Counted from the stretch's first letter, positions 398-48,371 are shown. The stretch is 64,000 bases of DNA from Bacteroidia bacterium (GCA_039918435.1 JBDSHN010000075.1:13342-77341), one strand, 5' to 3'. The notes: generated by a model from the letters alone, not told the origin. Numbers and translations are program-made.

Positions 398-1165
398 ATG
401 CCCAATCCAATTCAACTTTCCGTAGTCATCATCACTTTCAACGAAGAGCGTAACATCGCCCGTTGCCTGGATGCTGTGCGCGAAATTGCGGATGATGTTG
501 TTGTGGTTGATTCTTTCTCATCTGATAAAACAGAAAGTATCTGCCGGGAAAAAGGTGCGCGGTTTGTGCAGCATAAATTTGAAGGACATATCGAGCAAAA
601 AAATTACGCCATTACGCAAGCGAAATTTCCTTACTTGCTTTCACTAGATGCGGATGAAGCGCCGGAAGAAAAATTAATCGCTTCAATTAAAAAAGTGAAA
701 GCAGATTGGAAAGCGGATGGTTACGAAATGAACCGCCTTACTAATTATTGCGGAAAATGGATTAAACATTGCGGCTGGTACCCGGATGTGAAATTGCGTT
801 TGTGGGATTCAAGAAAAGGCAAATGGGGCGGAATTAATCCGCATGATAAATATGAAATGAATGCGGAGGCAAAGATCATCCACATTGAAGGCGATATTCT
901 GCATTACAGCTTTTATTCAATCGATCAGCATTATAAGCAGGTGGAATACTTCACCACCATTTCTGCAAAGGCGATGTTTGCGCAGGGAAAAAGATCTTCG
1001 GGAATAAAGCTGATCATAAAACCATTCGCAAAATTCCTGAAAGATTATATTTTCAAACTTGGAATTTTGGATGGCTATTATGGATTTGTCATCTCGCGCA
1101 TTTCTGCTTATGCGACGTACCTGAAATATAAAAAGCTGCTTACGCTTCAGCGAGCGTCTGCTTAA
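398..1165 (+). CDS. Family 2 glycosyltransferase (LPS-core type, WaaE/KdtX-like)
   Basis: The N-terminus LSVVIITFNEERNIARCLDAV...VVVVDSFSSD...SLDADE is a GT2 fold with a DxD-like DADE motif. Length is 255 aa. Confidence 0.7.
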   Translation: MPNPIQLSVVIITFNEERNIARCLDAVREIADDVVVVDSFSSDKTESICREKGARFVQHKFEGHIEQKNYAITQAKFPYLLSLDADEAPEEKLIASIKKVKADWKADGYEMNRLTNYCGKWIKHCGWYPDVKLRLWDSRKGKWGGINPHDKYEMNAEAKIIHIEGDILHYSFYSIDQHYKQVEYFTTISAKAMFAQGKRSSGIKLIIKPFAKFLKDYIFKLGILDGYYGFVISRISAYATYLKYKKLLTLQRASA

Positions 1166-2204
1166 ATACTTCAAGGTATTGTTCGGTTACATTACCGATC
1201 GAATTTCTTCGTGAAGTAATTTCAAACGCTTTTTCTGTCAATGTTTTTTTCAACGCCTCATCCGATAAGATAAGATCAAGATTTACCGCAAGCGCTTTCG
1301 GATCTTTAATGTTGCTCACCAATCCTGCATCACCGATAATTTCTTTCAGTCCGCCCGCACTTGTGGAAACTACCGGCACTTTATACATAAATGCATCGAG
1401 CACGCTGCTTCCCAATCCTTCTTCTTCGGAACTCATCACAAATGCATCGAACACCGCGAAAAAATCTTCTACGCGGTCAACGAATCCCATCAGCATATAA
1501 AAATCTTCAATCCCGTATTCTTTGATCTTCGCTTCGAGCGCTTCTTTTAAAATACCATCGCCGAAATGGAGAAAAATAAAATCCTGCCGTTTTTTTGAAA
1601 GCTCATAAACAGCAGCGGCCATCGTCAGCGGATCTTTATGCTGCACAAGGGCTGAAGTGGTTGCAAGAATTTTCTTAGCGTTATCTCCTTTCAAAGTAAT
1701 ATTCCGTTCGCTGAGAAAAAATTCGGCGCGTTCTTTATTCAGTTTATTGGCAACAACAATCTCCGTGATCAGCGCCACCTTTTTCACACCAATGCGCTCA
1801 AGAATTTCTTTGATCGGTGTTGAGATCGCAATGAGCTTGTCGGTCATGCGGTATTTCATCTTTGTGAAAAAACCTTTCGGAACAAAATCAACGCGGCGTG
1901 TATAAACGACCGGGCGCCCGTGAAAAGGTTTTGCAAGTAGTGCATGGAATTGTGCGTTGGCCGTTTGCACATGAATGATATCGTAAGCAGAACCATTCCG
2001 TGCAAGCCATGCAAATGCTTTTGCTTTGGAAGGAATGCAATGCACAGGAATGTTGAGCGCTTTTGTTTTTTCTTCAAGCGGAAAACCACCGATGCAAAGT
2101 AAATCCACCTTTTGAGCCACGTCACGGAAACCCTTGATGTTGTACCAGGTTTGCCGTTCGCCCCCTCTCCAGGTTTTTTCAGTATTTACTTCAAGTATAT
2201 GCAT
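1140..2204 (-). CDS. Glycosyltransferase family 4 (GT-B, RfaG-like)
   Basis: 354 aa. The C-terminal half (FVMSSEEEGLGSSVLDAFMYKVPVVSTSAGGLKEII) matches the GT4/GT1 EX7E-type nucleotide-sugar binding region. It converges on and overlaps the GT2 gene by 26 bp. Confidence 0.7.
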   Translation of the reverse strand: MHILEVNTEKTWRGGERQTWYNIKGFRDVAQKVDLLCIGGFPLEEKTKALNIPVHCIPSKAKAFAWLARNGSAYDIIHVQTANAQFHALLAKPFHGRPVVYTRRVDFVPKGFFTKMKYRMTDKLIAISTPIKEILERIGVKKVALITEIVVANKLNKERAEFFLSERNITLKGDNAKKILATTSALVQHKDPLTMAAAVYELSKKRQDFIFLHFGDGILKEALEAKIKEYGIEDFYMLMGFVDRVEDFFAVFDAFVMSSEEEGLGSSVLDAFMYKVPVVSTSAGGLKEIIGDAGLVSNIKDPKALAVNLDLILSDEALKKTLTEKAFEITSRRNSIGNVTEQYLEVFKQTLAEA

Positions 2205-2272
2205 GTGGAGTACGAATTATCACATTGTGACCACTATGTGGCGAATCGTTACGAATCTTACTAATGGTTTAC

Positions 2273-3967
2273 TTAAGGATTTGTTTCGCCTGGATTTTTG
2301 GTTTCTTCTGAACGGATGGCACTTTCTCTCGGCATGGCAAATAGAAACAATGCGTTGAAGAAAGCGAAAAAGTTTACGCCCTGGCTCGTTTCCAATGTAT
2401 CGTCATCGAAGAACGACATACAAAGAACAAGGAAAAAGGCGAGGTAGAGATAGCTTCTCCAGCGTTTCATTCTGCGCGGCGCATACCAGAGCGAAAAAAT
2501 AAAATACAACAACGCAGGAATGCCAAGACAAACGGCGATGGAAAGAAATTGGTTGTGCGCATGCATCCATTGATATTCACGTTCGAGCTTCGTGCCGTAA
2601 GAATGATAAACTTTCTCATACGACTTTTGCTGTCCTCCTGTACCCACACCAATCCATGGATGTTGCTTGATTGTTGTCAATGCTGTTTGCGCAAATTCCA
2701 TTCTCATAGTTACTGAATTTCCGCTCGGACTTCCGCCATAAAAATAATTGTGCAATTCCCAGCAGACCTGGTACGCTCTTCGTTCCAGGGGCGAACGTAA
2801 GCTGTCGAATTCATTGGTAGCCCCATTTTCAATTGCGCGGACTTCTTGGTCGCTCAGCTTTTCAATTGCCTCTGCATCTTTTCGGGAATTTGTGGAAGAA
2901 AGATAACGGAGAATCGTAAAGCAAATCTGGTCGCCGTTGACATCTTTTCCGGTGAAAGGAATTTGACTCCGCCGTGTCCATGCTGAATCTAACTCATCCC
3001 AACAATAATACACCATTACCTGGTGACCGTTTTCGATCATTGGGTAATTGAGATCGTGCATATACCGGTTTCCGTATTTGGTGGTATCATTCAAATGCTC
3101 AAGGTCGGCGGGAAGTATAGTGAAATGTTCTTTGTAAAAATGCTTCCCTGACATTGCTGCTATTGAAATACCTGCAATGAAAATAAAGATGATCACAATG
3201 GCTGCAATTTTTTTGCGGTAGATAAAAAACATGCTGACCAGAAGAATAAATCCGCCCAAAAATAAAATGACAAGCCCGGTGAGCGATTGCATATATTGCA
3301 GGAACCAGAGAAACCAGGCGATCAATATCATTGCACCGACACGCAGCATAATTTTCTTTTCCCTTACAATCCAGTGCCCGAGAAAAAATACGCTCAATGC
3401 GCACATCAGCGAAAGACGGATCAACGGAACAAAAACAGATGCATCGCGCAGGTTAGTGATCGGTTTTTTTGTCGGGAGAATTCCTTGTGCAATAAGCATG
3501 GTGGAAATGGTGCTCACAAAAACGGCAAGCACAAAAGTGAGCATCAGGAACTCAAAAAGTTTTTTATTCAGCGGCTGCGTCGTTCCGATAATGAGTGGAA
3601 CAATAAGAAGCGGCAATTTTATTTTCAGATCATTCCACGCAGCATGCTGATCGGGCGACCAGAGAATACCGATAAAGTGAAGCACAACAATCACCATCAG
3701 CACTGGAATGGCCGGACGTGCTTTGAAGAGTCGCCATTTCGGCTTTAGATTTTCTTCGGCGAGGTCATGAAAAAAAGCAGACAGGCTGAATTTTTTCCCT
3801 TTGTAATATTTCCAGACGGGCTCAGTGCGGGAACCTTCGAAAAGCCAGTTGAAGCTAAGCGTAAACAGGGAAGCGCCGATCAGGAATTTTCCTAACGACA
3901 AAGACGCGGCCATGAGAAACAAGCCAAAAATAAATAGCCAGCGATGGTATTTTTCCCCGAAGATCAA
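2273..3967 (-). CDS. O-antigen ligase/polymerase-like (Wzy_C family) polytopic membrane protein
   Basis: 564 aa with more than 10 predicted hydrophobic helices and a central loop typical of the O-antigen ligase family. It neighbours two LPS glycosyltransferases. Confidence 0.45.
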   Translation of the reverse strand: MIFGEKYHRWLFIFGLFLMAASLSLGKFLIGASLFTLSFNWLFEGSRTEPVWKYYKGKKFSLSAFFHDLAEENLKPKWRLFKARPAIPVLMVIVVLHFIGILWSPDQHAAWNDLKIKLPLLIVPLIIGTTQPLNKKLFEFLMLTFVLAVFVSTISTMLIAQGILPTKKPITNLRDASVFVPLIRLSLMCALSVFFLGHWIVREKKIMLRVGAMILIAWFLWFLQYMQSLTGLVILFLGGFILLVSMFFIYRKKIAAIVIIFIFIAGISIAAMSGKHFYKEHFTILPADLEHLNDTTKYGNRYMHDLNYPMIENGHQVMVYYCWDELDSAWTRRSQIPFTGKDVNGDQICFTILRYLSSTNSRKDAEAIEKLSDQEVRAIENGATNEFDSLRSPLERRAYQVCWELHNYFYGGSPSGNSVTMRMEFAQTALTTIKQHPWIGVGTGGQQKSYEKVYHSYGTKLEREYQWMHAHNQFLSIAVCLGIPALLYFIFSLWYAPRRMKRWRSYLYLAFFLVLCMSFFDDDTLETSQGVNFFAFFNALFLFAMPRESAIRSEETKNPGETNP

Positions 3968-33649: not shown

Positions 33650-34360
33650 TCACAGAAGTGTTCCACCATTCAAATCTCCCGCCACCGTCCGCCTGGATTT
33701 CAAAATTGCTTCAGCAATAATTAAATCCGTCGGTGTTGTCAATTTGAAATTATCCACGTTGCCATCCACGAGATGAATGGATTCCCCAAATGATTCTACA
33801 ACAGAAGCATCGTCGGTAAATGTGTATTTGTATTCCTGCGAATATGCTTTCTTCAGCAGCGGAACAGAAAAACATTGCGGCGTTTGTATCAGGCAATATT
33901 TTGAACGGTCAACAGCAACGCTGGGCTTTGAATCGTTCTGGCGGATGGAATCACTCAGCGGAATTGAAGGAACACCGCTTCCGTTAAGCTCAGCCATATT
34001 GAACGAATTGAGAATTGTTTTTTTTGTGACCAGCGGACGAACAGCATCATGCACTGCAACAAGCGCCTCTTCATCCGGAATTAAAGAAAGACCATTCTTC
34101 ACCGATTCAAAACGCGTTTCGCCTCCCGCCGTGATCTGAACCGGAACCGGAAGTTTATATTCCTGCGCGATCTTTTCCCAATGTGAAAACTCGCTGGCAG
34201 GTAAAACAAGAATAACGATGATGTCTTTATCGTAATCAGCAAACGCGGCAATGCTATGCAATAAAACAGGGCGTCCGTCCAGCTTTAAAAACTGTTTTGG
34301 TGTGGGAGATTGCATCCGCGAACCTCTTCCTGCTGCAACGATGATGACGTAATGTTTCAA
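33650..34360 (-). CDS. ispD: 2-C-methyl-D-erythritol 4-phosphate cytidylyltransferase
   Basis: The N-terminus YVIIVAAGRGSRMQSPTPKQFLKLDGRPVL is canonical IspD. 236 aa. Confidence 0.8.
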   Translation of the reverse strand: MKHYVIIVAAGRGSRMQSPTPKQFLKLDGRPVLLHSIAAFADYDKDIIVILVLPASEFSHWEKIAQEYKLPVPVQITAGGETRFESVKNGLSLIPDEEALVAVHDAVRPLVTKKTILNSFNMAELNGSGVPSIPLSDSIRQNDSKPSVAVDRSKYCLIQTPQCFSVPLLKKAYSQEYKYTFTDDASVVESFGESIHLVDGNVDNFKLTTPTDLIIAEAILKSRRTVAGDLNGGTLL

Positions 34361-34374
34361 GATTCCAAATATAG

Positions 34375-34583
34375 GGGGAAGTAGTTAGTCCGCGGCGGAG
34401 AAGTTATTAGTTCGGGGAATTTTTTGAAAAAGAGAACCAATTACAAGTGAAAACGAATTTATGAAAGCTCTTGGATTACATATTATTCGTACCATTCAGA
34501 ATTTGTTCTCCATCCAACAAAAAAAATCGGAGAAAACAGACGCATCCATTTTCTCCGAACTAAAAACTAATCCACCGCGGCGG
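34375..34583. mobile_element. MITE-like element bounded by inverted repeats of about 35 bp
   Basis: The left repeat is gtagttagtccgcggcggagaagttattagttcgg (34375-34409). The right is ccgaactaaaaactaatccaccgcggcggactacgaact (34545-34583). They are reverse-complement related through AGTCCGCGGCGG..TTAGTT..AGTTCG, and the ~135-bp interior has no ORF. Confidence 0.4.
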
Positions 34584-34591
34584 ACTACGAA

Positions 34592-35641
34592 CTATATGAT
34601 AAGCATGGCATCGCCGTAGCTCAGGAAACGGTATTTTTCTTTTACCGCTTCTTTGTATGCTTTCATGATCAGGTCATAACCACCGAATGCCGAAACCATC
34701 ATCAGCAAAGTAGATTCTGGCGCATGGAAATTAGAGATCATGCAGTTTGCGATTGAAAAATCATAAGGAGGAAAAACAAATTTGTTTGTCCAGCCGCTGA
34801 ATGGTTTCAGGTATCCATCGGTAGAAACCGAAGTTTCAGTTGCACGGATAGTAGTTGTTCCTACTGCACAAACGCGTTTTTTATTGCGTTTCGCTTCATT
34901 CACCAGCAATGTTGCACTAACGGGAATCTCAAGCTTTTCAGATTCCATTTTGTGCTTGGTGAGATCTTCCACTTCAACCGGACGGAAACTTCCCAATCCA
35001 ACGTGCAAGGTCAGCTTTGGGAATGTAATGCCTTTTAATTCCAGGCGTTTCAACAGCTCACGTGAGAAGTGCAATCCTGCAGTCGGAGCAGCAACAGCAC
35101 CTTCCACATCAGCGTAAACAGTCTGGTAACGGTCTTTATCTTCCGGGCTCAGCGGACGTTTGATGTATTTCGGAATAGGTGTATTTCCGAGAAGTTCAAT
35201 TGTTTTTTTGAATTCTTCGAACGGGCCGTCGAAAAGGAAACGCAATGTACGGCCACGACTTGTGGTGTTATCAATTACTTCAGCAACGAGGTTATCATTT
35301 TCGCCGAAGTAAAGCTTATTGCCGATACGGATTTTACGCGCAGGATCTACAAGCACATCCCAGAGGCGGCTTTCACGGTTCAGTTCACGAAGAAGAAAAA
35401 CTTCAATTTTAGCGCCTGTTTTTTCTTTGTTTCCGTAAAGGCGTGCAGGAAATACTTTCGTGTCATTCAAAATCATGCAATCGCCGTCATCGAAGTAGTT
35501 GATGATGTCTTTGAAGATCTTGTGCTCGATCTTGCCGGTTTTACGGTCAATGACCATCATCCGCGACTCATCACGGTTCTTTGAAGGGTAATCTGCCACC
35601 AGCTCTGGCGGAAGATGAAATTTGAATTGAGATAATTTCAT
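34592..35641 (-). CDS. queA: tRNA preQ1(34) S-adenosylmethionine ribosyltransferase-isomerase
   Basis: [19 protein letters not shown]...DESRMMV... is the canonical QueA N-terminus. 349 aa. Confidence 0.85.
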
Positions 35642-43456: not shown

Positions 43457-43788
43457 CTGAATAAATTAAGGGATGCAAAAATAGTTTTCATAATGACAGG
43501 AAAGAAAAGTATTAGACGACAGGAAATTCAGGTCAGACCGATGACGTATGGACAGCGATGAGTGAATAAATAATATGCAGCAGGAGGAAAAATTATTGAG
43601 CAATTCCCCATATTGGGAAAAATTTTTATTTTATTTTGCCTGGTATAGCTGCGGCAAATTATTTTAAAAAGATGGAAGAAATAGTACAGCGTTGAGACAA
43701 AAAATAGCCGCCATTTAAGAGGGCAGCTATGAAAATATTAAAGTGGGACGTACTGGGTTCGTCCGCCGCGGCGGACAGTGAACTCTAC

Positions 43789-44034
43789 TTAATATCCTGT
43801 TTGAGATTTAATAAAATCTCTTCCCTTGCCGCTTTTAAGAAATTTCTCACGTGCTATTGCTTCGGATCGTGTTTCAAATTCTTCTTTGTAAATCAAGCTC
43901 CATGGACCTTTATTCTTGGTATAAACACCAAGCAATCCAAGATTGTGCTGAATTAGCCGGGTTTCAATATCCTCAGTATGCCCAGTGTACTTTTTACAAA
44001 CTTTTTCAGAAAAGATGACATAAATATAAAACAT
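43789..44034 (-). CDS. GIY-YIG nuclease family protein (YhbQ/UPF0213-like)
   Basis: The 81-aa protein MFYIYVIFSEKVCKKYTGHTEDIETRLIQHN...FETRSEAIAREKFLKSGKGRDFIK is a paralogue of 48020..48307. Confidence 0.7.
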   Translation of the reverse strand: MFYIYVIFSEKVCKKYTGHTEDIETRLIQHNLGLLGVYTKNKGPWSLIYKEEFETRSEAIAREKFLKSGKGRDFIKSQTGY

Positions 44035-44042
44035 AGCTTAAC

Positions 44043-44074
44043 AAAAAAATAGCTACCAATTGAAGTTGGCAGCT
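44043..44074 (-). terminator. Hairpin plus U-run between tRNA-Val(GAC) and the GIY-YIG ORF
   Basis: On the minus strand: agcugcc, loop, gguagcu, then AUUUUUUU. The ORF start codon is 8 nt further on. Confidence 0.6.
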
Positions 44075-44094
44075 ATGGTTATTATTAAATTTTG

Positions 44095-44169
44095 TGGGAC
44101 GTACTGGGTTCGAACCAGTGACCTCTACGTTGTCGACGTAGCGCTCTAAACCAGCTGAGCTAACATCCC
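44095..44169 (-). tRNA. tRNA-Val (anticodon GAC)
   Basis: Minus strand: GGGATGTTAGCTCAGCTGGTTTAGAGCGCTACGTCGACAACGTAGAGGTCACTGGTTCGAACCCAGTACGTCCCA. It has D- and T-arm consensus, the anticodon loop TCGACAA, and a 7-bp acceptor stem with one G-U pair. The discriminator is A and CCA is not encoded. Confidence 0.85.
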
Positions 44170-44216
44170 TGCGGGCACGAAATTAAATAATTAAATGGAA
44201 GTTGCTGCCAAAACAA

Positions 44217-44909
44217 TTATTTGCGTTGCTTGATCAGTTCGAAAAAAGGTTTCTTATACGTTTCCGAAACAGGAATAAAAATTTCCCCGATCTTGATTTC
44301 GTCACGCTCGATCGATTCTATCTTGTCAATCGCAACCATAAAAGATTTATGCACCCTGAAAATTATTTCGGATGAAATCTGCGCTTCAAAATCTTTAAAC
44401 GTCTGAAGCGTCATTATTTTTTTCGTCGTAGTATGAATTCTTCTGTAATCGCGCATTCCTTCGATATAAATTATTTCTGGAAGGGAAATTTTTTCAAGGC
44501 GATACTCGGTTTTGACAAAAATATAATCCTTACCGGTTACAGGAATATTTTTTTCCGATTCGATGCGTACACGTTCCACAGCCTGGAAAAAACGCTCGAA
44601 CGTATACGGTTTTAATAAATAATCAGTCACATTCAGCTCGAAACCTTTAAGCGCAAATTCCTGGTATGCAGTGGTAATAATGATCTTTGCATTTGTCTGT
44701 GCTGATTCAAGAAGCTGAATGCCGGAAAGCTCACCGAGATTAATATCCAAAAACACTAAATCAACCGTATTGGATTTTAAAAATGCAAGTGCTGCGTAAG
44801 CATTATCAAATGTGGCAAGCAAATGCAAATGAGCAAGCTTTAATACATAGTTCCTCGCCCGTTCAAGCGCTAAGGGTTCGTCCTCTACAATAATGCAGTT
44901 AATTTTCAT
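44217..44909 (-). CDS. LytTR-family response regulator (REC + LytTR DNA-binding)
   Basis: REC domain (IVEDEPLALE...DLVFLDINL...) and a C-terminal LytTR domain (FVKTEYRLEKISLPEIIYIEGMRDYRRIHT). Confidence 0.8.
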   Translation of the reverse strand: MKINCIIVEDEPLALERARNYVLKLAHLHLLATFDNAYAALAFLKSNTVDLVFLDINLGELSGIQLLESAQTNAKIIITTAYQEFALKGFELNVTDYLLKPYTFERFFQAVERVRIESEKNIPVTGKDYIFVKTEYRLEKISLPEIIYIEGMRDYRRIHTTTKKIMTLQTFKDFEAQISSEIIFRVHKSFMVAIDKIESIERDEIKIGEIFIPVSETYKKPFFELIKQRK

Positions 44910-45969
44910 TCCGCCTGATGATCAGTTTAACATGATACACTTCATCTGCACTCGTCACATCTAAGGTATGCATCCCGGGATATAAAAGCGCCAGCCGTTT
45001 TTTTATCAATTCATTCCCAAGCCCGCCTTGTTCATCACCTTTTTGTTTTTGCGTGAAATGATTTTTGCAATTGAAAATAATTTTATCCGGCGCTATCTCA
45101 AAATCAATACTGATCGTGTTGGACGATTTTTTATTTTCGGAATGCTTAAATGCATTTTCTATAAACGGAACAAATAACATCGGCTCAATCAGCATGCCTT
45201 CTGCATCACCCTTCACGCTGTATTGAATGTAATCAGGATTGGAAGTTCTGATTTTCTGCAGGCTGATGTATTCTTCAATGTAAGTTAACTCCCTTGTGAG
45301 CAATATTTTTTCCGTTTTGGTTTCATACAGCATAAAGCGCATGATTCCCGAAAGTTTATTCAGGTAAGCCGAAGCTTTTTTCGCATCTTTTTCAATCAGC
45401 ACATCAATATTATTAAGCGTGTTGAATAAAAAATGCGGATTAAGCTGCGATTTTACCAATGCCATTTCCATTTCGAAATTCTTTTGTGTCAGCTCTTCTT
45501 TTAGTTTGATATCACCATACCACGAAATAAATCCACGCATGACCAAAGCAATAATGCCATGAATAAGCGCCAGGATGGAAATTACGATTGTAATTGTAAT
45601 CGCGGAATTCCAATGGTCAGCAAACATAATAAGGGGATTAACAAAAACAGATAAGAACGTTTCAGGAATGATCGCGCTGATCATTGACACTAAAATTCCG
45701 GCGACAATCAGTGCAAGAATTTTTCTGCGTTTTAGAAATTTATCAAACAGGAAAAAATAAAACGCGTAGAATGAAAGTAAAGCTGTTCCGATGGTTAAAG
45801 CCGTTAAAGGCGATAAAAACAAAAGCTTCATCAGCTGGATCAGCCCCGGCGTAAAACGGTTTGAGCCCGCACTCATTGCCAGCAGAAGGCCGAACAGTAA
45901 TAAAAAGTACAGCAGCCAATATCCGGCATGCAAAAGAAGAGTGACGGTTTTTTTCATTGGATTGCGCAT
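44899..45969 (-). CDS. LytS/YehU-type sensor histidine kinase (His_kinase + HATPase)
   Basis: An N-terminal multi-TM domain precedes the LytS-type His_kinase motif QLNPHFLFNTLNNI. It overlaps the response-regulator start. Confidence 0.75.
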   Translation of the reverse strand: MRNPMKKTVTLLLHAGYWLLYFLLLFGLLLAMSAGSNRFTPGLIQLMKLLFLSPLTALTIGTALLSFYAFYFFLFDKFLKRRKILALIVAGILVSMISAIIPETFLSVFVNPLIMFADHWNSAITITIVISILALIHGIIALVMRGFISWYGDIKLKEELTQKNFEMEMALVKSQLNPHFLFNTLNNIDVLIEKDAKKASAYLNKLSGIMRFMLYETKTEKILLTRELTYIEEYISLQKIRTSNPDYIQYSVKGDAEGMLIEPMLFVPFIENAFKHSENKKSSNTISIDFEIAPDKIIFNCKNHFTQKQKGDEQGGLGNELIKKRLALLYPGMHTLDVTSADEVYHVKLIIRRNEN

Positions 45970-46009
45970 GTAAATTATGCAATATTCAGCTTGTACATTC
46001 TTAATCTGC

Positions 46010-46780
46010 TCATCCCTTTTCTTTTTTATTCACGTAAAGGATATAGCTGATAATTGTAAAGACCAAAAAGTATCCGAGCGCAAGCACATGAATTGGCGTT
46101 TCCCTGTTATACTTTCCAACGCCGTGTAAATAATTTAAACCGCAATAGCTATAAGGAATCCAGTGACCATATTCCCAGCCAAGTACGGCGATGGAAAGGA
46201 TCCAGCATGCAATTCCAAACGCAACCGGCACAAGGAAATTTTTAAACTGCAGACTGATCAGGTATTGAAGTGCAAGAACAGGAAGACAATCGATAAAGTA
46301 GTGAAAATTTTCTTTCACGAAAAATAACCACGGAATCGGTTCCGTTGGATATGCAATGCCGAAAACAAGGTTCGGAATAATGCCGCTAAGATAAATTCCG
46401 ATGTTGAAAAGAATGAAAAATTGCACCAGCATAACCAGAATCACCGTGAGCTTGGCAAAAAAAATGGTGGTTAATGTTTGTGGAGTTGTATGCAATTGTT
46501 TCCAGGTATTGTTTTTGAATTCCAGCTGTGTAATCAGGCTGGCGGCCAAAGCAATTCCTAACGGAAGCAAAAAAACAGCCATCGGTTCCAACGCATCATT
46601 CCATAGATTTTCCCAATAACGAGCTGAAATACTTGCTTTGCTTAATGCGCTATGTCGTACCAGTTTCGCAACTAAAATAACTGCGGGAATAAAAAATGCA
46701 CCAGCCACGACAAGGATCGAAGCAAGGCTGCGTTTCTTTTTTAACCATTCACTTTGAAAGGAATAAATAAAATTTCTCAT
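46010..46780 (-). CDS. ABC-2 type transporter permease
   Basis: 256 aa with about 6 TM helices. It overlaps the ATPase gene by 4 bp. Confidence 0.55.
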   Translation of the reverse strand: MRNFIYSFQSEWLKKKRSLASILVVAGAFFIPAVILVAKLVRHSALSKASISARYWENLWNDALEPMAVFLLPLGIALAASLITQLEFKNNTWKQLHTTPQTLTTIFFAKLTVILVMLVQFFILFNIGIYLSGIIPNLVFGIAYPTEPIPWLFFVKENFHYFIDCLPVLALQYLISLQFKNFLVPVAFGIACWILSIAVLGWEYGHWIPYSYCGLNYLHGVGKYNRETPIHVLALGYFLVFTIISYILYVNKKEKG

Positions 46781-47691
46781 TGTGCATCGTTTTTTACCAG
46801 GTCCATAAAAATAGATTCAAGGTCATTTTTCACATGATGTATCTGGAATACTTCAATATTGTTTTGTACAAGCTGCTTGTTTAAACCGGCTACTGTTTTT
46901 TCTTCCGTAACCGGAATTGAAACAGCTCCATGCAAAAGCACTGGCGTAAATCCATTTGCAGAAATTATCCTTGCCGTTTGTTCTGGATCATTCGTTTCAA
47001 ACTTTATAACAGCAGTTTGTTTTTGTTTCAAATGCAACTCATCAAGTGTTCCCTGGAACATAATGGAGCCTTTGTTGATTATACCGACGTGAGTCACCAT
47101 CTTTTCGATTTCAGCTAATAAATGGCTGGAAATAATAATGGTCATGTTCTGCTCCGTATTCAGTTTTTTCAAAAGGTCACGAATTTCCAGAATGCCATTC
47201 GGATCAAGTCCGTTGGTGGGTTCGTCCAGAATAAGCAGGGAAGGCGAGTGAAGCAATGCAATGGCGATGCTCAGCCGCTGTTTCATTCCAAGCGAAAAAT
47301 TCGAAGTCTTTTTATTTTTGGTATGAGACAGCCCGACAATTTCAAGCACTTCGTTAATCCGCTGCTCCGGACATTGATATACTTTTTGAAGTACGCGTAA
47401 ATTTTCTGCCGCAGTTAAATGTCCATAAAGAGAAGGCGATTCGATCAACGAACCGGTTTGCTTTAATAGTTCAATCCGGTGTGTGCTGAAAGGTTGATTG
47501 AAAATCAGAATCTCTCCTTTTTGTTTTTTAATCAATCCGAGCAGCAGCCGGAGCGTGGTTGTTTTTCCTGCTCCGTTCGGGCCTAAGAAGCCATACAATG
47601 AACCTTGCGGCACTTGCAGGTTAATATCTTTCAGCGCCGTTTCCCCGCCGGAAAATGTATGGGTAAGGTTTTTTGTCTCAATGCAGTTCAT
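46777..47691 (-). CDS. ABC transporter ATP-binding protein
   Basis: Walker A (GPNGAGKTT), signature (LSLGMKQRLSIAIAL), Walker B (LLILDEPTNGLD) and H-loop. Confidence 0.85.
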   Translation of the reverse strand: MNCIETKNLTHTFSGGETALKDINLQVPQGSLYGFLGPNGAGKTTTLRLLLGLIKKQKGEILIFNQPFSTHRIELLKQTGSLIESPSLYGHLTAAENLRVLQKVYQCPEQRINEVLEIVGLSHTKNKKTSNFSLGMKQRLSIAIALLHSPSLLILDEPTNGLDPNGILEIRDLLKKLNTEQNMTIIISSHLLAEIEKMVTHVGIINKGSIMFQGTLDELHLKQKQTAVIKFETNDPEQTARIISANGFTPVLLHGAVSIPVTEEKTVAGLNKQLVQNNIEVFQIHHVKNDLESIFMDLVKNDAQ

Positions 47692-47854
47692 GCAACTTTA
47701 TTTTGCTGCCAAAGTAGAAAAGGCTTGAACGCCTATGAAAACCGATATGCAAAGCGGGGGAGTTTGTCTGCGAAAGGGGTGATTAATCCTGCAAAATAAT
47801 CTGCGTTTTGTCCGTTTGGAGGAAAAAATCAGCTAAAACATTTTCCAATGAATT

Positions 47855-47884
47855 TTGCAGATGTAAAAGAAGCAGTTATATTTG
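47855..47884 (+). promoter_or_regulatory. Bacteroidota sigma-A promoter for tRNA-Val(TAC): TTG (-33) and TATATTTG (-7)
   Basis: TATATTTG at 47877-47884 fits TAnnTTTG. A TTG lies about 22 nt upstream, and the tRNA 5' end is 20 nt downstream. Confidence 0.5.
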
Positions 47885-47903
47885 CACCCCTCAAGGGAAA
47901 AAT

Positions 47904-47981
47904 GGGAGCTTAGCTCAGCTGGTTCAGAGCACCTGCCTTACAAGCAGGGGGTCATAGGTTCGAACCCTATAGCTCCCACCA
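47904..47981 (+). tRNA. tRNA-Val (anticodon TAC), CCA encoded
   Basis: GGGAGCTTAGCTCAGCTGGTTCAGAGCACCTGCCTTACAAGCAGGGGGTCATAGGTTCGAACCCTATAGCTCCCACCA. The anticodon loop is CTTACAA and the fold is a canonical cloverleaf. Confidence 0.85.
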
Positions 47982-47988
47982 CATTCTA

Positions 47989-48019
47989 CCCACTTTCTAT
48001 TATGAAAGTGGGTTTTTTT
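47989..48019 (+). terminator. Hairpin plus T7 between the tRNA and the GIY-YIG ORF
   Basis: cccactttc, loop tattat, gaaagtggg (9-bp stem), then TTTTTTT directly abutting the ATG at 48020. Confidence 0.65.
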
Positions 48020-48307
48020 ATGCCTAAAATCTACATCCTCTTTTCCAAAAAATTGAATAAATACTACGTTGGGTATACTTCTGATGATTTGGAAGAGCGT
48101 TTGAGAAAGCATAATTCTAATCACTCGGGTTTTACAGGCGGATTTGGTGATTGGGAGATTAAGCATTTCGAGTCTTTCGAAACAAAAGAAGAAGCATTAA
48201 TCAGAGAAAAACAAATAAAAGGGTGGAAGAGCAGAAAATTGATAGAAAAACTAATCAAAAAATATGATTCAGAGCATCCCGACATGAAGTCGGGAGGAAC
48301 CCTATAG
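48020..48307 (+). CDS. GIY-YIG nuclease family protein (YhbQ/UPF0213-like)
   Basis: MPKIYILFSKKLNKYYVGYTSDDLEERLRKHN...FETKEEALIREKQIKGWKSRK has a GIY-YIG core. The listed ORF 47882..48307 runs spuriously through the tRNA. Confidence 0.7.
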   Translation: MPKIYILFSKKLNKYYVGYTSDDLEERLRKHNSNHSGFTGGFGDWEIKHFESFETKEEALIREKQIKGWKSRKLIEKLIKKYDSEHPDMKSGGTL

Positions 48308-48371
48308 CTCCCACAACTAAAAGCCTGTTAATACGCTGTATTGACAGGCTTTTCTGCTTTTAAATAAGCGG

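Follow-up and report, generated by a model that had tools for sequence, protein, structure and literature searches.

SegB is a free-standing GIY-YIG homing endonuclease of T4/T6-like phages that lies among tRNA genes and cleaves them at the T-loop motif RAWTSGAAC (PMC13096335). It was shown experimentally to drive tandem amplification of units comprising a tRNA and segB, via microhomology of the tRNA 5' end with the nuclease 3' end (PMC13096335). Among other GIY-YIG proteins, UPF0213/YhbQ has neither an assigned function nor a known tRNA linkage, while eukaryotic Slx1 is a structure-specific nuclease that requires Slx4 and a RING/PHD domain. Islands that integrate into tRNA genes end, on the side away from the tRNA, in a direct repeat of its 3' part. 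In type III toxin-antitoxin systems such as ToxIN, tandem short repeats, a terminator and a small nuclease gene form a single transcription unit, the toxin being an endoRNase (ToxN/AbiQ/CptN). In the REP/REPIN and RAYT systems, the RAYTs are HUH Y1 transposases and the REPs are dispersed genome-wide, and yeast mitochondrial DNA contains optional GC-rich palindromic clusters.

We examined two cassettes in the window (the whole 64-kb stretch of DNA that was analysed), both of which present the order tRNA-Val, terminator, GIY-YIG ORF and exact copy of the tRNA 3' end (Table 1). A preliminary description had reported the two tRNA-Val genes, terminators with T7, ORFs of 81 and 95 aa and repeats of the tRNA 3' end, and all were recovered at the same places; the ORF starts, given as 0–8 nt after the T-run, were measured at 8 nt (cassette 1) and 0 nt (cassette 2). 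The exact repeats of 19 bp in cassette 1 (43743-43761 = 44094-44112) and 18 bp in cassette 2 (48297-48314 = 47962-47979; 20/21 over 21 bp) were also as described, and they had zero occurrences in 100 dinucleotide-preserving shuffles with up to 2 mismatches allowed. As it had likewise reported for the cassettes, we found no integrase: no recombinase gene was detected near either cassette in the 64-kb window (tblastn, three local integrases).

Table 1. Features of the two tRNA-Val cassettes, with positions counted from the first letter of the window.
Cassette	Feature	Position	Strand	Evidence
1	Intact tRNA-Val(GAC), host gene	44094..44169	-	ARAGORN; Rfam tRNA 63.6 bits
1	Terminator T1, 11-bp stem + T7, between tRNA and nuclease ORF	44042..44076 (hairpin 44076-44049)	-	
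1	Stand-alone GIY-YIG ORF, 81 aa	43789..44034	-	Pfam PF01541 E 3.8e-16
1	Pseudo-tRNA 5' piece GTAGAGTTCACTG, tRNA positions ~40-52	43776..43788	-	Read off sequence; kept in L203
1	Perfect 14-nt palindrome TCCGCCGCGGCGGA, in place of G53-T54-T55 (T-loop) of pseudo-tRNA	43762..43775	.	
1	Pseudo-tRNA 3' piece, exact 19-nt copy of tRNA-Val(GAC), C56 to 1 base beyond discriminator	43743..43761	-	
1	T2, second terminator-like hairpin, ~84% copy of T1	43699..43731	-	Repeat comparison vs 44044-44077
2	Intact tRNA-Val(TAC), host gene	47904..47981	+	ARAGORN; Rfam 72.6 bits
2	Terminator T1, 10-bp stem + T7, abuts start codon	47988..48019 (hairpin 47988-48013)	+	
2	Stand-alone GIY-YIG ORF, 95 aa	48020..48307	+	Pfam E 6.9e-17
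2	Pseudo-tRNA D-arm remnant GATTCAGAGCA (intact tRNA, GGTTCAGAGCA)	48266..48276	+	
2	Palindromic hairpin, 19 nt, TCCCGAC-ATGAA-GTCGGGA, in place of anticodon arm	48277..48295	.	
2	Pseudo-tRNA 3' piece, T-loop GAACC to 3' end of tRNA-Val(TAC), 18 exact nt (20/21)	48297..48317	+	
2	T2, unrelated to T1	48319..48353	+	

The 3'-end repeat itself stands as first described, but its reach had been underestimated, as the homology extends further, into a pseudo-tRNA with a palindrome, and T1 of cassette 1 was copied too. In cassette 1, tRNA homology runs onward from the 3' strand of the anticodon stem, with GTAGAGTTCACTG spanning this strand, the variable loop and the 5' strand of the T-stem, and it is broken by the TCCGCCGCGGCGGA palindrome. 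This palindrome was present at the identical position in L203-L208 and, within 1.3 Mb of fetched DNA, nearly all its occurrences lay in tRNA fragments, in the D-loop or the T-loop. The TCCCGAC-N5-GTCGGGA hairpin of cassette 2 had one occurrence in the window and 0 expected by chance, and the pseudo-tRNA of this cassette is without positions ~44-56 relative to the family norm. The pseudo-tRNA encodes the C-terminal tail of the cassette 2 nuclease (SEHPDMKSGGTL), and the ORF takes its last three codons (the first of them partly) and its stop from the repeat, not four codons and the stop as had been read before. T2 of cassette 2 is probably the native tRNA/folC terminator, and the sequence flanking on the 3' side (CCCACAAC) agrees with that of the unoccupied site in L203. 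Upstream palindrome-tagged repeat arrays were absent at both window cassettes. At or close to each of the two, short-read contigs of the same strain break off.

These ORFs are predicted nucleases by sequence and modelled structure. Motifs, catalytic residues and fold all place them in the GIY-YIG superfamily (PF01541), and Y5, Y16, G18, R27, H31, N32 and E63 are invariant in the family alignment. The two window proteins share 43% identity over 76 aa, and not the ~35% of the preliminary description; the cassette 1 nuclease (34 homologues) bears the C-terminal motif LKSGKGRDF as clade marker and the cassette 2 nuclease (265 homologues) the motif IKGWKSR. The AlphaFold model of the latter (pLDDT 77; E3-9, E14-20, H24-34, E45-52, H56-67) matched UPF0213 1zg2, Slx1, I-TevI and UvrC in Foldseek, and the profile search returned 1zg2 (E 3.4e-9), 1ywl (3.7e-6) and then SLX1, an order identical to that of Foldseek. 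With UPF0213 (1zg2 BH0048, 1ywl EF2693) and Slx1 as best matches in both sequence and fold, these single-domain proteins belong to the UPF0213/YhbQ-Slx1 branch, and they share its minimal GIY-YIG core and conserved Tyr, Arg, His and Glu. A DNA-binding domain of the I-TevI/SegB type was absent, the 81–95 aa corresponding to the catalytic domain and one C-terminal helix. The intron endonuclease family TIGR01453 scored only 20 bits vs a cutoff of 56, intron RNA families gave no hit, and the ORFs occupy the spacer downstream of the tRNA, free-standing between host genes and outside any intron or intein. The dN/dS of the nuclease genes was 0.05-0.14 (0.05 for the cassette 1 gene vs its L203 orthologue), a constraint equal to that on the housekeeping neighbours.

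The preliminary description had proposed a YhbQ-type GIY-YIG family linked to tRNA genes and had suggested a search for further tRNA 3'-end duplications beside GIY-YIG ORFs. We found ~100 related loci with a common layout, namely a tRNA (Val, Arg, Pro, Leu or Lys), a terminator, the nuclease and a palindrome-tagged copy of that tRNA. They come from many Bacteroidota and from a contig pair labelled Patescibacteria; we found no prior description of tRNA-anchored GIY-YIG cassettes in the searchable literature. The proposed linkage was borne out by a same-strand tRNA upstream of the nuclease in 54/69 genome loci (median gap 43 nt). The nuclease gene starts 26-80 nt behind the intact tRNA and terminator, without space for a promoter of its own, and the Bacteroidetes -7 motif TAnnTTTG occurred in 0/54 of the tRNA-nuclease gaps; we infer that the nuclease is expressed via read-through from the tRNA promoter. 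The palindrome was present downstream of the nuclease in 62/74 genome loci, and 23/51 loci (~45%) also had palindrome-tagged 5' tRNA fragments upstream, often as tandem arrays. Tandem nuclease copies were seen in 19/80 loci (diverged paralogues at one tRNA in L016) and truncated copies were common too. In the window and in L016/L017, cassettes stand at more than one tRNA of the same genome.

In each copy of a tRNA piece, one arm or loop of the cloverleaf is swapped for a short GC-rich TCC...GGA palindrome, and in about half of the loci tRNA positions 44-76 recur without a mismatch (30-38 nt) in the downstream copy. T-stems vary between genomes, yet the fragments match the local tRNA (Val, Arg, Pro, Leu, Lys), whichever it is, and so originate from it. 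The match between pseudo-tRNA and resident tRNA stays perfect or nearly so even where synonymous divergence is saturated. The palindrome stems had only 10 mismatches in ~400 pairs, with double compensatory changes present, and the palindrome was conserved at 14/14 positions between the window and L203 despite dS > 1.5. Palindrome type followed the C-terminal motif of the nuclease (9 vs 87, zero crossed cases). Judged by these comparisons of sequence, the palindrome is specific to the nuclease clade and is maintained. The repeat, which had been taken for the simple scar of a single insertion, is instead part of a conserved pseudo-tRNA with a clade-specific palindrome, accompanied at ~45% of loci by the upstream arrays.

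The cassettes are patchily distributed. Approximately 6 of ~105 randomly sampled tRNA-Val(TAC) genes (~6%) were occupied, and the same tRNA types were found both filled and empty. The comparison with empty sites in relatives, also suggested beforehand, gave such sites in L194 and L099 vs the filled L028, with orthologous flanks, and in L203 for cassette 2; this presence/absence polymorphism was seen at genus/family distance only. The folC-tRNA-Val locus is occupied by both nuclease clades in different lineages, and folC-tRNA-Val-nuclease synteny spans several orders. Nuclease identity (70-80%) parallels the identity of flank proteins (81-86%), the genes tracking the host phylogeny, and in an abundant marine lineage the context was single and fixed (23/23 contigs read), with the same neighbours in all three places shown. 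By all appearances the nuclease genes have been passed on vertically under strong constraint for long periods, unlike a recent invader. No strain-level gain event was seen, and no phage or plasmid copies of the nuclease were found. In L038 the cassette lies alongside two intact tRNA-Val copies.

The arrangement has the appearance of a selfish nuclease module of long standing. Of the selfish, homing-like family that had been suggested, the tRNA-linked family without an integrase is real, but its behaviour does not look like that of a recent invader. Our preferred reading, which we hold tentatively and at somewhat below even chances, is a free-standing homing-type nuclease of the UPF0213/Slx1 kind at tRNA genes, which spreads and amplifies by break-induced recombination, the palindrome being a cognate or site-disrupting element. 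The predicted nuclease would break tRNA-gene DNA, and repair by recombination between tRNA copies could carry the cassette over to empty alleles, give rise to tandem duplicates as in phage SegB and hold the tRNA-derived arms to the sequence of the resident tRNA. The same repair might convert spare tRNA copies to a palindrome-bearing, cleavage-resistant and non-functional form, with the palindrome acting as a small site-disrupting insert, as a binding site of the nuclease or as both, while selection would retain one intact tRNA copy.

As with SegB, the GIY-YIG gene lies next to tRNA genes and outside introns and inteins, tandem units are common, and the overlap of the nuclease 3' end with the tRNA D-arm copy resembles the SegB microhomology. 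SegB, however, is a phage-borne protein of ~220 aa with a DNA-binding domain, whereas the cassette proteins of 81-95 aa are of the UPF0213/Slx1 branch, chromosomal and vertically stable, are accompanied by palindrome-tagged tRNA fragments, and had no phage homologues among those found. We counted for the homing reading the recurrent layout, the local-tRNA fragments, the maintained palindrome and its covariation with the motif, the patchy occupancy, the repeated colonisation, the intact catalytic residues and the SegB precedent. Counted against it were the host-tracking genes, the one fixed context in the marine lineage, the two intact tRNA-Val copies in L038, the zero strain-level gains and zero phage or plasmid copies, and the lack of a DNA-binding domain, from which SegB and I-TevI derive their specificity. 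The constraint resembling that of housekeeping neighbours also counts against it, as a purely selfish homing gene is expected to decay once fixed, and so do the palindromes in 52-nt 5' fragments (L205), where there would be nothing to disable or protect. Beside the nuclease the presumed target, a functional tRNA, is intact, so that disruption of the target site in the classical sense is not evident.

An addiction or RNA-partner module, comparable to a type III toxin-antitoxin pair, would be kept since its loss is harmful; the palindrome, as RNA both in the upstream repeats and at the 3' end of the nuclease mRNA, would form a hairpin that binds the nuclease and neutralises or directs it. We consider such a module unlikely, although several loci (L022, L004, L061, L205, L163) do present a promoter, tandem hairpin repeats of 52-98 nt, a terminator and the nuclease, as in the transcription unit of ToxIN, and it would suit the compensatory changes in the hairpin, the covariation of hairpin type with the protein motif, the sense-strand U-G wobble that is tolerated in L215, L032 and L078, and the long vertical persistence with strong selection on gene and hairpin. 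Nevertheless, GIY-YIG enzymes are DNases and type III toxins are of another fold, PADLOC gave no match, and the repeats are optional, the upstream arrays missing at more than half of the loci and present in 0/2 window cassettes. Such a module also leaves unexplained why the RNA would be made of adjacent-tRNA fragments, and the mismatches are too few to separate selection on RNA from selection on DNA. Another candidate is a domesticated host function. A housekeeping UPF0213/YhbQ-type enzyme would, for example, process hairpins or DNA branches where tRNA loci are heavily transcribed, in mere synteny with tRNA-Val and with the fragments and palindromes as by-products of local recombination. The folC synteny over several orders, the dN/dS like that of neighbouring genes and the conserved bacterial proteins and Slx1 as nearest solved relatives agree with such a role. 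We regard it as quite unlikely, given the ~6% occupancy with empty sites in relatives, the presence of more than one copy in a genome, each at another tRNA, the common tandem arrays and truncated copies (short-read contigs ending at or near both cassettes), and a specific, selected palindrome shared by the Val, Arg, Pro, Leu and Lys loci.

A decayed or integrase-mobilised mini-island (CIME-like), where a trans-acting tyrosine recombinase inserted the ~330-bp cassette between attL and attR, would account for the directly repeated tRNA 3' part, a classic mark of att sites. IntDOT-type integrases do use the same tRNA-Val(TAC) as attachment site in these genomes (L018, L044, L069, L074, L077), and the palindrome is built like a recombinase core site, with a spacer between two arms. 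The genuine integrase junctions, however, begin at tRNA ~28-32 with a normal anticodon arm and not with a palindrome, and no integrase was present within 2.5 kb in ~74/80 loci or in the window. Unlike in tRNA islands, moreover, the cargo is only ~330 bp without a recombinase, the repeats bear palindromes and are kept identical in the long term, and 5' fragments are also duplicated upstream; these upstream arrays, the D-loop palindromes and the two terminator registers are left unexplained, and tRNA and palindrome are both intact instead of forming hybrid sites. This origin is highly improbable. A chance similarity or a one-off segmental duplication of no biological meaning has the shortness of the window repeats in its favour and nothing else; the zero shuffle occurrences and the same arrangement at ~100 independent loci leave it practically no probability.

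The cassettes finally recall REP/RAYT and the yeast mitochondrial clusters. The enzyme is GIY-YIG and not HUH Y1, though palindromes flank the gene, and unlike REPs the palindromes were found, in the DNA sampled, almost only in tRNA-gene fragments next to the nuclease gene. What they have in common is one constrained, vertically inherited nuclease-type gene with short GC-rich palindromes that apparently spread by conversion or insertion.

We recovered exactly two tRNA genes in the window with ARAGORN and Rfam, tRNA-Val(GAC) and tRNA-Val(TAC), and each has behind it a terminator-like hairpin, a T7 run and then a GIY-YIG ORF; the two encoded proteins are 43% identical over 76 aa. The preliminary description had reported an exact repeat of the tRNA 3' end behind each ORF. 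All parts of this arrangement were found where it had placed them and the repeats never occurred in shuffled sequence, so the observation is correct. The duplicated 3' ends proved, however, to be larger tRNA copies with a palindrome rather than bare 3' ends. In cassette 1 (the tRNA-Val(GAC) cassette, minus strand), the sequence past the stop codon reads GTAGAGTTCACTG-palindrome TCCGCCGCGGCGGA-CGAACCCAGTACGTCCCAC, and the corresponding part of the resident tRNA reads GTAGAGGTCACTG-[GTT]-CGAACCCAGTACGTCCCAC: the copy is the tRNA from the 3' strand of the anticodon stem onward, with a perfect 14-nt palindrome in place of G53-T54-T55. The terminator of cassette 1 is present twice, in versions about 84% alike. 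In cassette 2 (the tRNA-Val(TAC) cassette), the ORF tail reads GATTCAGAGCA-[TCCCGAC ATGAA GTCGGGA]-G-GAACCCTATAGCTCCCAC, that is, a D-arm remnant, a 7-bp/5-nt hairpin for the anticodon arm, and the 3' part of the tRNA with an internal deletion. Two more CCGCGGCGGA-type palindromes lie in the window at 34389-34399 (TCCGCGGCGGA) and 34571-34584 (TCCACCGCGGCGGA; one mismatch from the cassette 1 palindrome). They enclose about 180 nt of intergenic DNA, with ORFs 33650-34360(-) and 34592-35641(-) outside, and the pair (34389-34584) may be a decayed relic of the cassette system.

Features of the two cassettes, and integrases and pseudo-tRNA calls at related loci (L handles, loci fetched for comparison)
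Sequence	Feature	Position	Strand	Basis or remark
Window	tRNA-Val(GAC)	44094-44169	-	ARAGORN + Rfam
Window	81-aa ORF	43789-44034	-	Pfam GIY-YIG, E ~1e-16; start 8 nt past T7 run
Window	tRNA-Val(TAC)	47904-47981	+	ARAGORN + Rfam
Window	95-aa ORF	48020-48307	+	Pfam GIY-YIG, E ~1e-16; start 0 nt past T7 run
L018	IntDOT-type integrase	1059-2261		Phage_integrase + SAM_5 + Arm-DNA-bind_5
L074	IntDOT-type integrase	989-2353		Phage_integrase + SAM_5 + Arm-DNA-bind_5
L077	IntDOT-type integrase	883-2241		Phage_integrase + SAM_5 + Arm-DNA-bind_5
L069, L044	IntDOT-type integrase			Phage_integrase + SAM_5 + Arm-DNA-bind_5
L035	palindrome-bearing pseudo-tRNA	2813-2889		ARAGORN call Ile(TAT)
L004	palindrome-bearing pseudo-tRNA	2731-2807		ARAGORN call Glu(TTC)
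L001	palindrome-bearing pseudo-tRNA	2881-2959		ARAGORN call Val(AAC)
L036	palindrome-bearing pseudo-tRNA	951-1019		ARAGORN call Met(CAT)

A profile of the 95-aa protein was scanned against one genome per species, and the best 80 of 371 matches were taken as 80 loci, with hosts in Chitinophagaceae, Cyclobacteriaceae, Sphingobacteriales and Flavobacteriales. Among these best 80, a same-strand tRNA lay upstream of the first nuclease copy in 54 of the 69 loci whose upstream sequence was long enough (52 Val-TAC and 2 Arg-TCT; median gap 43 nt), and the Bacteroidetes -7 promoter motif TAnnTTTG was found in none of the 54 tRNA-nuclease gaps. Within the same 80, a TCCCGA(Y)-N3-6-(R)TCGGGA-type palindrome stood just past the ORF (62/74 loci), at least one palindrome-bearing unit stood upstream of the tRNA (23/51), and two or three nuclease copies were arranged in tandem (19/80), near-identical in some cases (L022, 335-nt period) and diverged paralogues in others (L016). 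At about half the loci, the 30-38 nt behind the palindrome repeat the cognate tRNA exactly, starting at position 44 and running to its 3' end, and these exact copies hold despite T-stem sequence differences between genomes.

By alignment, the downstream element is a pseudo-tRNA that keeps D-arm, variable loop, T arm and acceptor 3' strand, with the palindrome in the place of the anticodon arm. It is full-length in L004 and L035, and full-length pseudo-tRNAs score above the Rfam tRNA threshold; at most of the remaining loci its 5' part is missing and the C-terminal codons of the ORF run into it, which accounts for the conserved 'SEHPDxKSGG' protein tail. The upstream unit spans 77-98 nt: tRNA positions 1-26 come first, then the palindrome, then positions 44-53, and the rest is degenerate. 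In L022 a 79-nt unit is repeated 4.5 times at 98% identity, and further units were seen in L004, L035, L061, L029 and L163. At L035:2457-2482 the terminator between tRNA and nuclease gene is the family palindrome itself plus a T-run (TCCCGACTTTTTGTCGGGATTTTTTT). At L163:960-1352 a tRNA-Val(TAC) has four palindrome-tagged 5' units before it and no nuclease gene within 1.5 kb downstream, while L060, 97% identical to it upstream, has the nuclease and lacks the units; upstream units and nuclease can therefore be uncoupled.

Relatives of the 81-aa protein sit behind tRNA-Val(GAC) (L203, L205) or tRNA-Val(TAC) (L204), all with a downstream pseudo-copy that has TCCGCCGCGGCGGA or the compensated TTCGCCGCGGCGAA at the G53T54T55 place. 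This clade also has upstream 5' fragments with the same palindrome in the D-loop (four 52-nt units in L205), and in 1.3 Mb of fetched DNA the cassette 1 palindrome occurred almost only at those D-loop and T-loop positions of tRNA fragments. Directly upstream of an orphan cassette of this clade in L206-L208 we noted a 620-aa AAA_15/AAA_21 ATPase of a defence-system kind (450-2309); that cassette has a left tRNA fragment from a different type of tRNA (...GGAGGTACCA), with its start at the T-loop. Further tRNAs are involved in other loci: a more distant relative lies at tRNA-Pro(TGG) with palindrome TCCCGTC..ACGGGA (L214), another at tRNA-Leu(CAG), on a contig with a protein labelled Patescibacteria by NCBI and with the gene flanked by two pseudo T-arm copies, each containing TCCGCCCAAGGCGGA (L212), and in L209 the nuclease lies upstream of tRNA-Lys(TTT) with TCCGCCAGCTGGCGGA-tagged 5' fragments on both sides. 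The palindrome type followed the C-terminal protein motif: LK[ST]GxG[RL][DE]F was paired with TCCGCC..GGCGGA in 9 of 10 loci and IKxWKS[RH] with TCCCGN..NCGGGA in 87 loci, with no crossed cases, an association that is confounded by shared ancestry. The palindrome stem showed compensatory double changes at positions 2 (CG/TA), 6 (AT/GC) and 7 (CG/TA/AT) and only 10 mismatches in about 400 pairs; these were too few to separate selection on an RNA hairpin from selection on a DNA palindrome by wobble type.

Related tRNA-Val loci are patchily occupied and included the empty sites that the preliminary description had expected. L194 and L099 are naive sites with promoter, tRNA and terminator, and their upstream flanking protein is orthologous to that of the filled L028 (72-75% amino-acid identity), as is the downstream flank of L194 (60%). 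Cassette 2 is absent from L203, a close relative of the window organism, where the tRNA-Val(TAC) is 81/82 identical and the 3' flank CCCACAAC matches that of the window pseudo-copy, not of the functional tRNA. We also used a pattern built on the tRNA alone to collect 134 tRNA-Val(TAC) genes from metagenomes: the nuclease was present at only about 6 of the roughly 105 with enough downstream sequence, and the same tRNA sequence types were found both filled and empty. Palindromes were missing from nearly all unoccupied loci of this sample, the nuclease-free exceptions with upstream palindrome units being L163, L136 and L167; L101 has a palindrome just past the tRNA, and L121 was left uncalled for too little downstream sequence.

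Other results speak for long residence. Within a clade, nuclease identity (70-80%) runs parallel to flank-protein identity (81-86%), nuclease dN/dS (0.05-0.14) is like that of neighbour genes, and folC-tRNA-Val-nuclease synteny extends across orders. We found no homologues in phage genomes; plasmid records yielded only three distant Sinorhizobium replicon matches. The P0104 allele, an abundant one from marine Flavobacteriales, had one context in all 23 contigs read, as far as their grouping shows. Exact-protein look-ups were uninformative on strain-level polymorphism, as the grouping showed a single P0104 context and contigs of the same strain stopped at or near the cassettes.

The preliminary description had called a duplicated tRNA 3' end the classic scar of site-specific insertion; a passive scar is incompatible with the kept identity of the pseudo-copies. 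Cassette 1 is orthologous in the window and L203 (same flanking genes, 77% nucleotide identity); synonymous sites are saturated (pS 0.65-0.72) and the terminator past the pseudo-tRNA is unalignable, yet pseudo-tRNA plus palindrome are identical at 45 of 49 positions. In the Ferruginibacter-like clade, the tRNA T-stems of L028 and L022 differ, and each pseudo-copy equals its own tRNA over 34-36 nt. Identity kept despite such divergence implies gene-conversion homogenisation, repeated re-creation of the copy, or selection. A strict rule of conversion for all spare tRNA copies was discarded, as L038 has two intact tRNA-Val copies beside its cassette.

At several loci the tRNA ahead of the cassette is 5'-truncated and the surroundings are not those of a tRNA gene; the fragment starts at about position 28-32 in L018, L074 and L077. 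An IntDOT-type tyrosine integrase lies directly upstream in each of these three and in L069 and L044, and a DDE insertion sequence lies upstream in L037. We rejected the view that the five integrase-associated cassettes are transposed copies: they are attR junctions of ordinary tRNA-inserted islands, which therefore use the same tRNA-Val(TAC) as attachment site, next to cassettes. At this tRNA a genuine integrase scar lacks the palindrome and keeps a normal anticodon arm, which argues against an integrase origin of the cassettes; with no recombinase and different boundaries, such an origin was rejected as the main explanation. A conserved terminator type (CCTCACA..TGTGAGG) directly precedes the nuclease gene and travels with it. 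The native terminator of the clade (GGTTTCAAGAAATTGRAACC) stands after the pseudo-copy in L011 and L032 and after the functional tRNA in L028, L052 and the nuclease-free L163, so the unit occurs in two circularly permuted registers, as expected from resolution of a tandem array or from pop-out and re-entry via the repeated tRNA segment. The two registers, together with a D-arm copy that also fits the local tRNA, led us to reject a simple target-site-duplication model.

The AlphaFold model of the protein (pLDDT 77) shows no more than the GIY-YIG core and a single C-terminal helix; the catalytic residues are invariant and there is no DNA-binding domain. Its nearest structures were, in order, UPF0213 1zg2 and 1ywl, Slx1, and then the I-TevI catalytic domain and UvrC. 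PADLOC gave no meaningful defence-system match (only UzuA, E 0.006), and Rfam gave tRNA alone for the downstream repeat.

We tentatively favour a free-standing homing-type nuclease that would break tRNA-gene DNA, with repair by recombination between tRNA copies. This reading is the most economical because one protein is encoded, the nuclease is strongly constrained and the surrounding DNA all derives from recombination of one tRNA gene. It would cover the tandem amplification, the patchy distribution with empty sites, the repeated arrival of diverged paralogues at one tRNA, and the local origin of the tRNA fragments and their concerted evolution with the resident tRNA. In spare tRNA copies the palindrome would act as a small insertion disrupting whichever arm or loop is recognised; it would also, or instead, be a binding site of the nuclease. 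A precedent is SegB, a GIY-YIG nuclease that sits among phage tRNA genes, which it cleaves at the T-loop motif RAWTSGAAC; its tandem amplification of tRNA+segB units has been experimentally shown (PMC13096335). We file the cassettes as free-standing GIY-YIG homing-type elements at tRNA genes, with an unusual, unexplained nucleic-acid partner. Four points keep our confidence short of an even chance: the functional tRNA beside the nuclease is uncut, it is not obvious how the nuclease would recognise a sequence, the palindromes on very short 5' fragments are left unexplained, and an addictive or RNA-partner module fits the long vertical persistence and the strong constraint almost as well, a module that we consider unlikely all the same.

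A guide mechanism is far less probable still. The hairpin and the adjacent tRNA-derived segment would serve as handle plus guide, as RNA or folded single-stranded DNA, for a domain-only GIY-YIG nuclease, with the copied tRNA sequence rather than the protein setting the target, a minimal guide-directed homing system similar in logic to TnpB/omega-RNA. It would explain why similar proteins (63-65% identity to the 95-aa protein) occur at tRNA-Val and tRNA-Arg, each with fragments of its own tRNA, and likewise the relatives at Pro, Leu and Lys flanked by own-tRNA fragments. The tRNA-derived 3' segment is, however, degenerate or partly deleted beside an intact ORF in cassette 2 of the window, L049 and L215.

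UPF0213/YhbQ structures have been solved since 2005 and, to our knowledge, no function has been assigned. In line with the preliminary description, which was aware of no such report for YhbQ-type proteins, we found none linking UPF0213/YhbQ-type genes to bacterial tRNA genes or to such palindromes in full-text literature, which mostly leaves out subscription journals; a phylogenomic survey of GIY-YIG proteins does not mention tRNA-linked genes of this type (PMC1564403). The cassettes give these proteins their first defined context, both in the genome and in mechanism. The nuclease, its cognate palindrome and pieces of the tRNA gene form a compact, apparently undescribed and possibly new selfish module, which remodels tRNA loci by creating tandem arrays, inversions and pseudo-tRNAs. 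If the nuclease cuts tRNA-gene DNA, it would be the equivalent of phage SegB on bacterial chromosomes, a tractable case of specificity gain by a catalytic-domain-only nuclease, and a case of a selfish nuclease lasting long periods at an essential gene.

Pseudo-tRNAs annotated as tRNA-Ile(TAT), tRNA-Glu(TTC) and similar put tRNA gene counts in Bacteroidota at risk of error; two of the four ARAGORN calls in the table exceed the Rfam tRNA gathering score. Short-read assemblies break at the module: they stop at or near cassettes in L081 and L082 (the window's strain) and in many contigs of about 500 bp, presumably owing to the internal repeats, and cassette loci will therefore be under-represented or fragmented in metagenome-assembled genomes. 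Finally, folC, tRNA-Val(TAC) and tRNA-Val(GAC) share one orientation in relatives (L203, L204, L205, L014), with the tRNAs 117-300 nt apart. In the window (44217-47981), the Val(TAC)+nuclease unit lies inverted with respect to folC, with an ABC-transporter/histidine-kinase/LytTR operon between it and Val(GAC); comparable tRNA+cassette inversions distinguish L028 from L194, L032 and L023, and L011 from L163.
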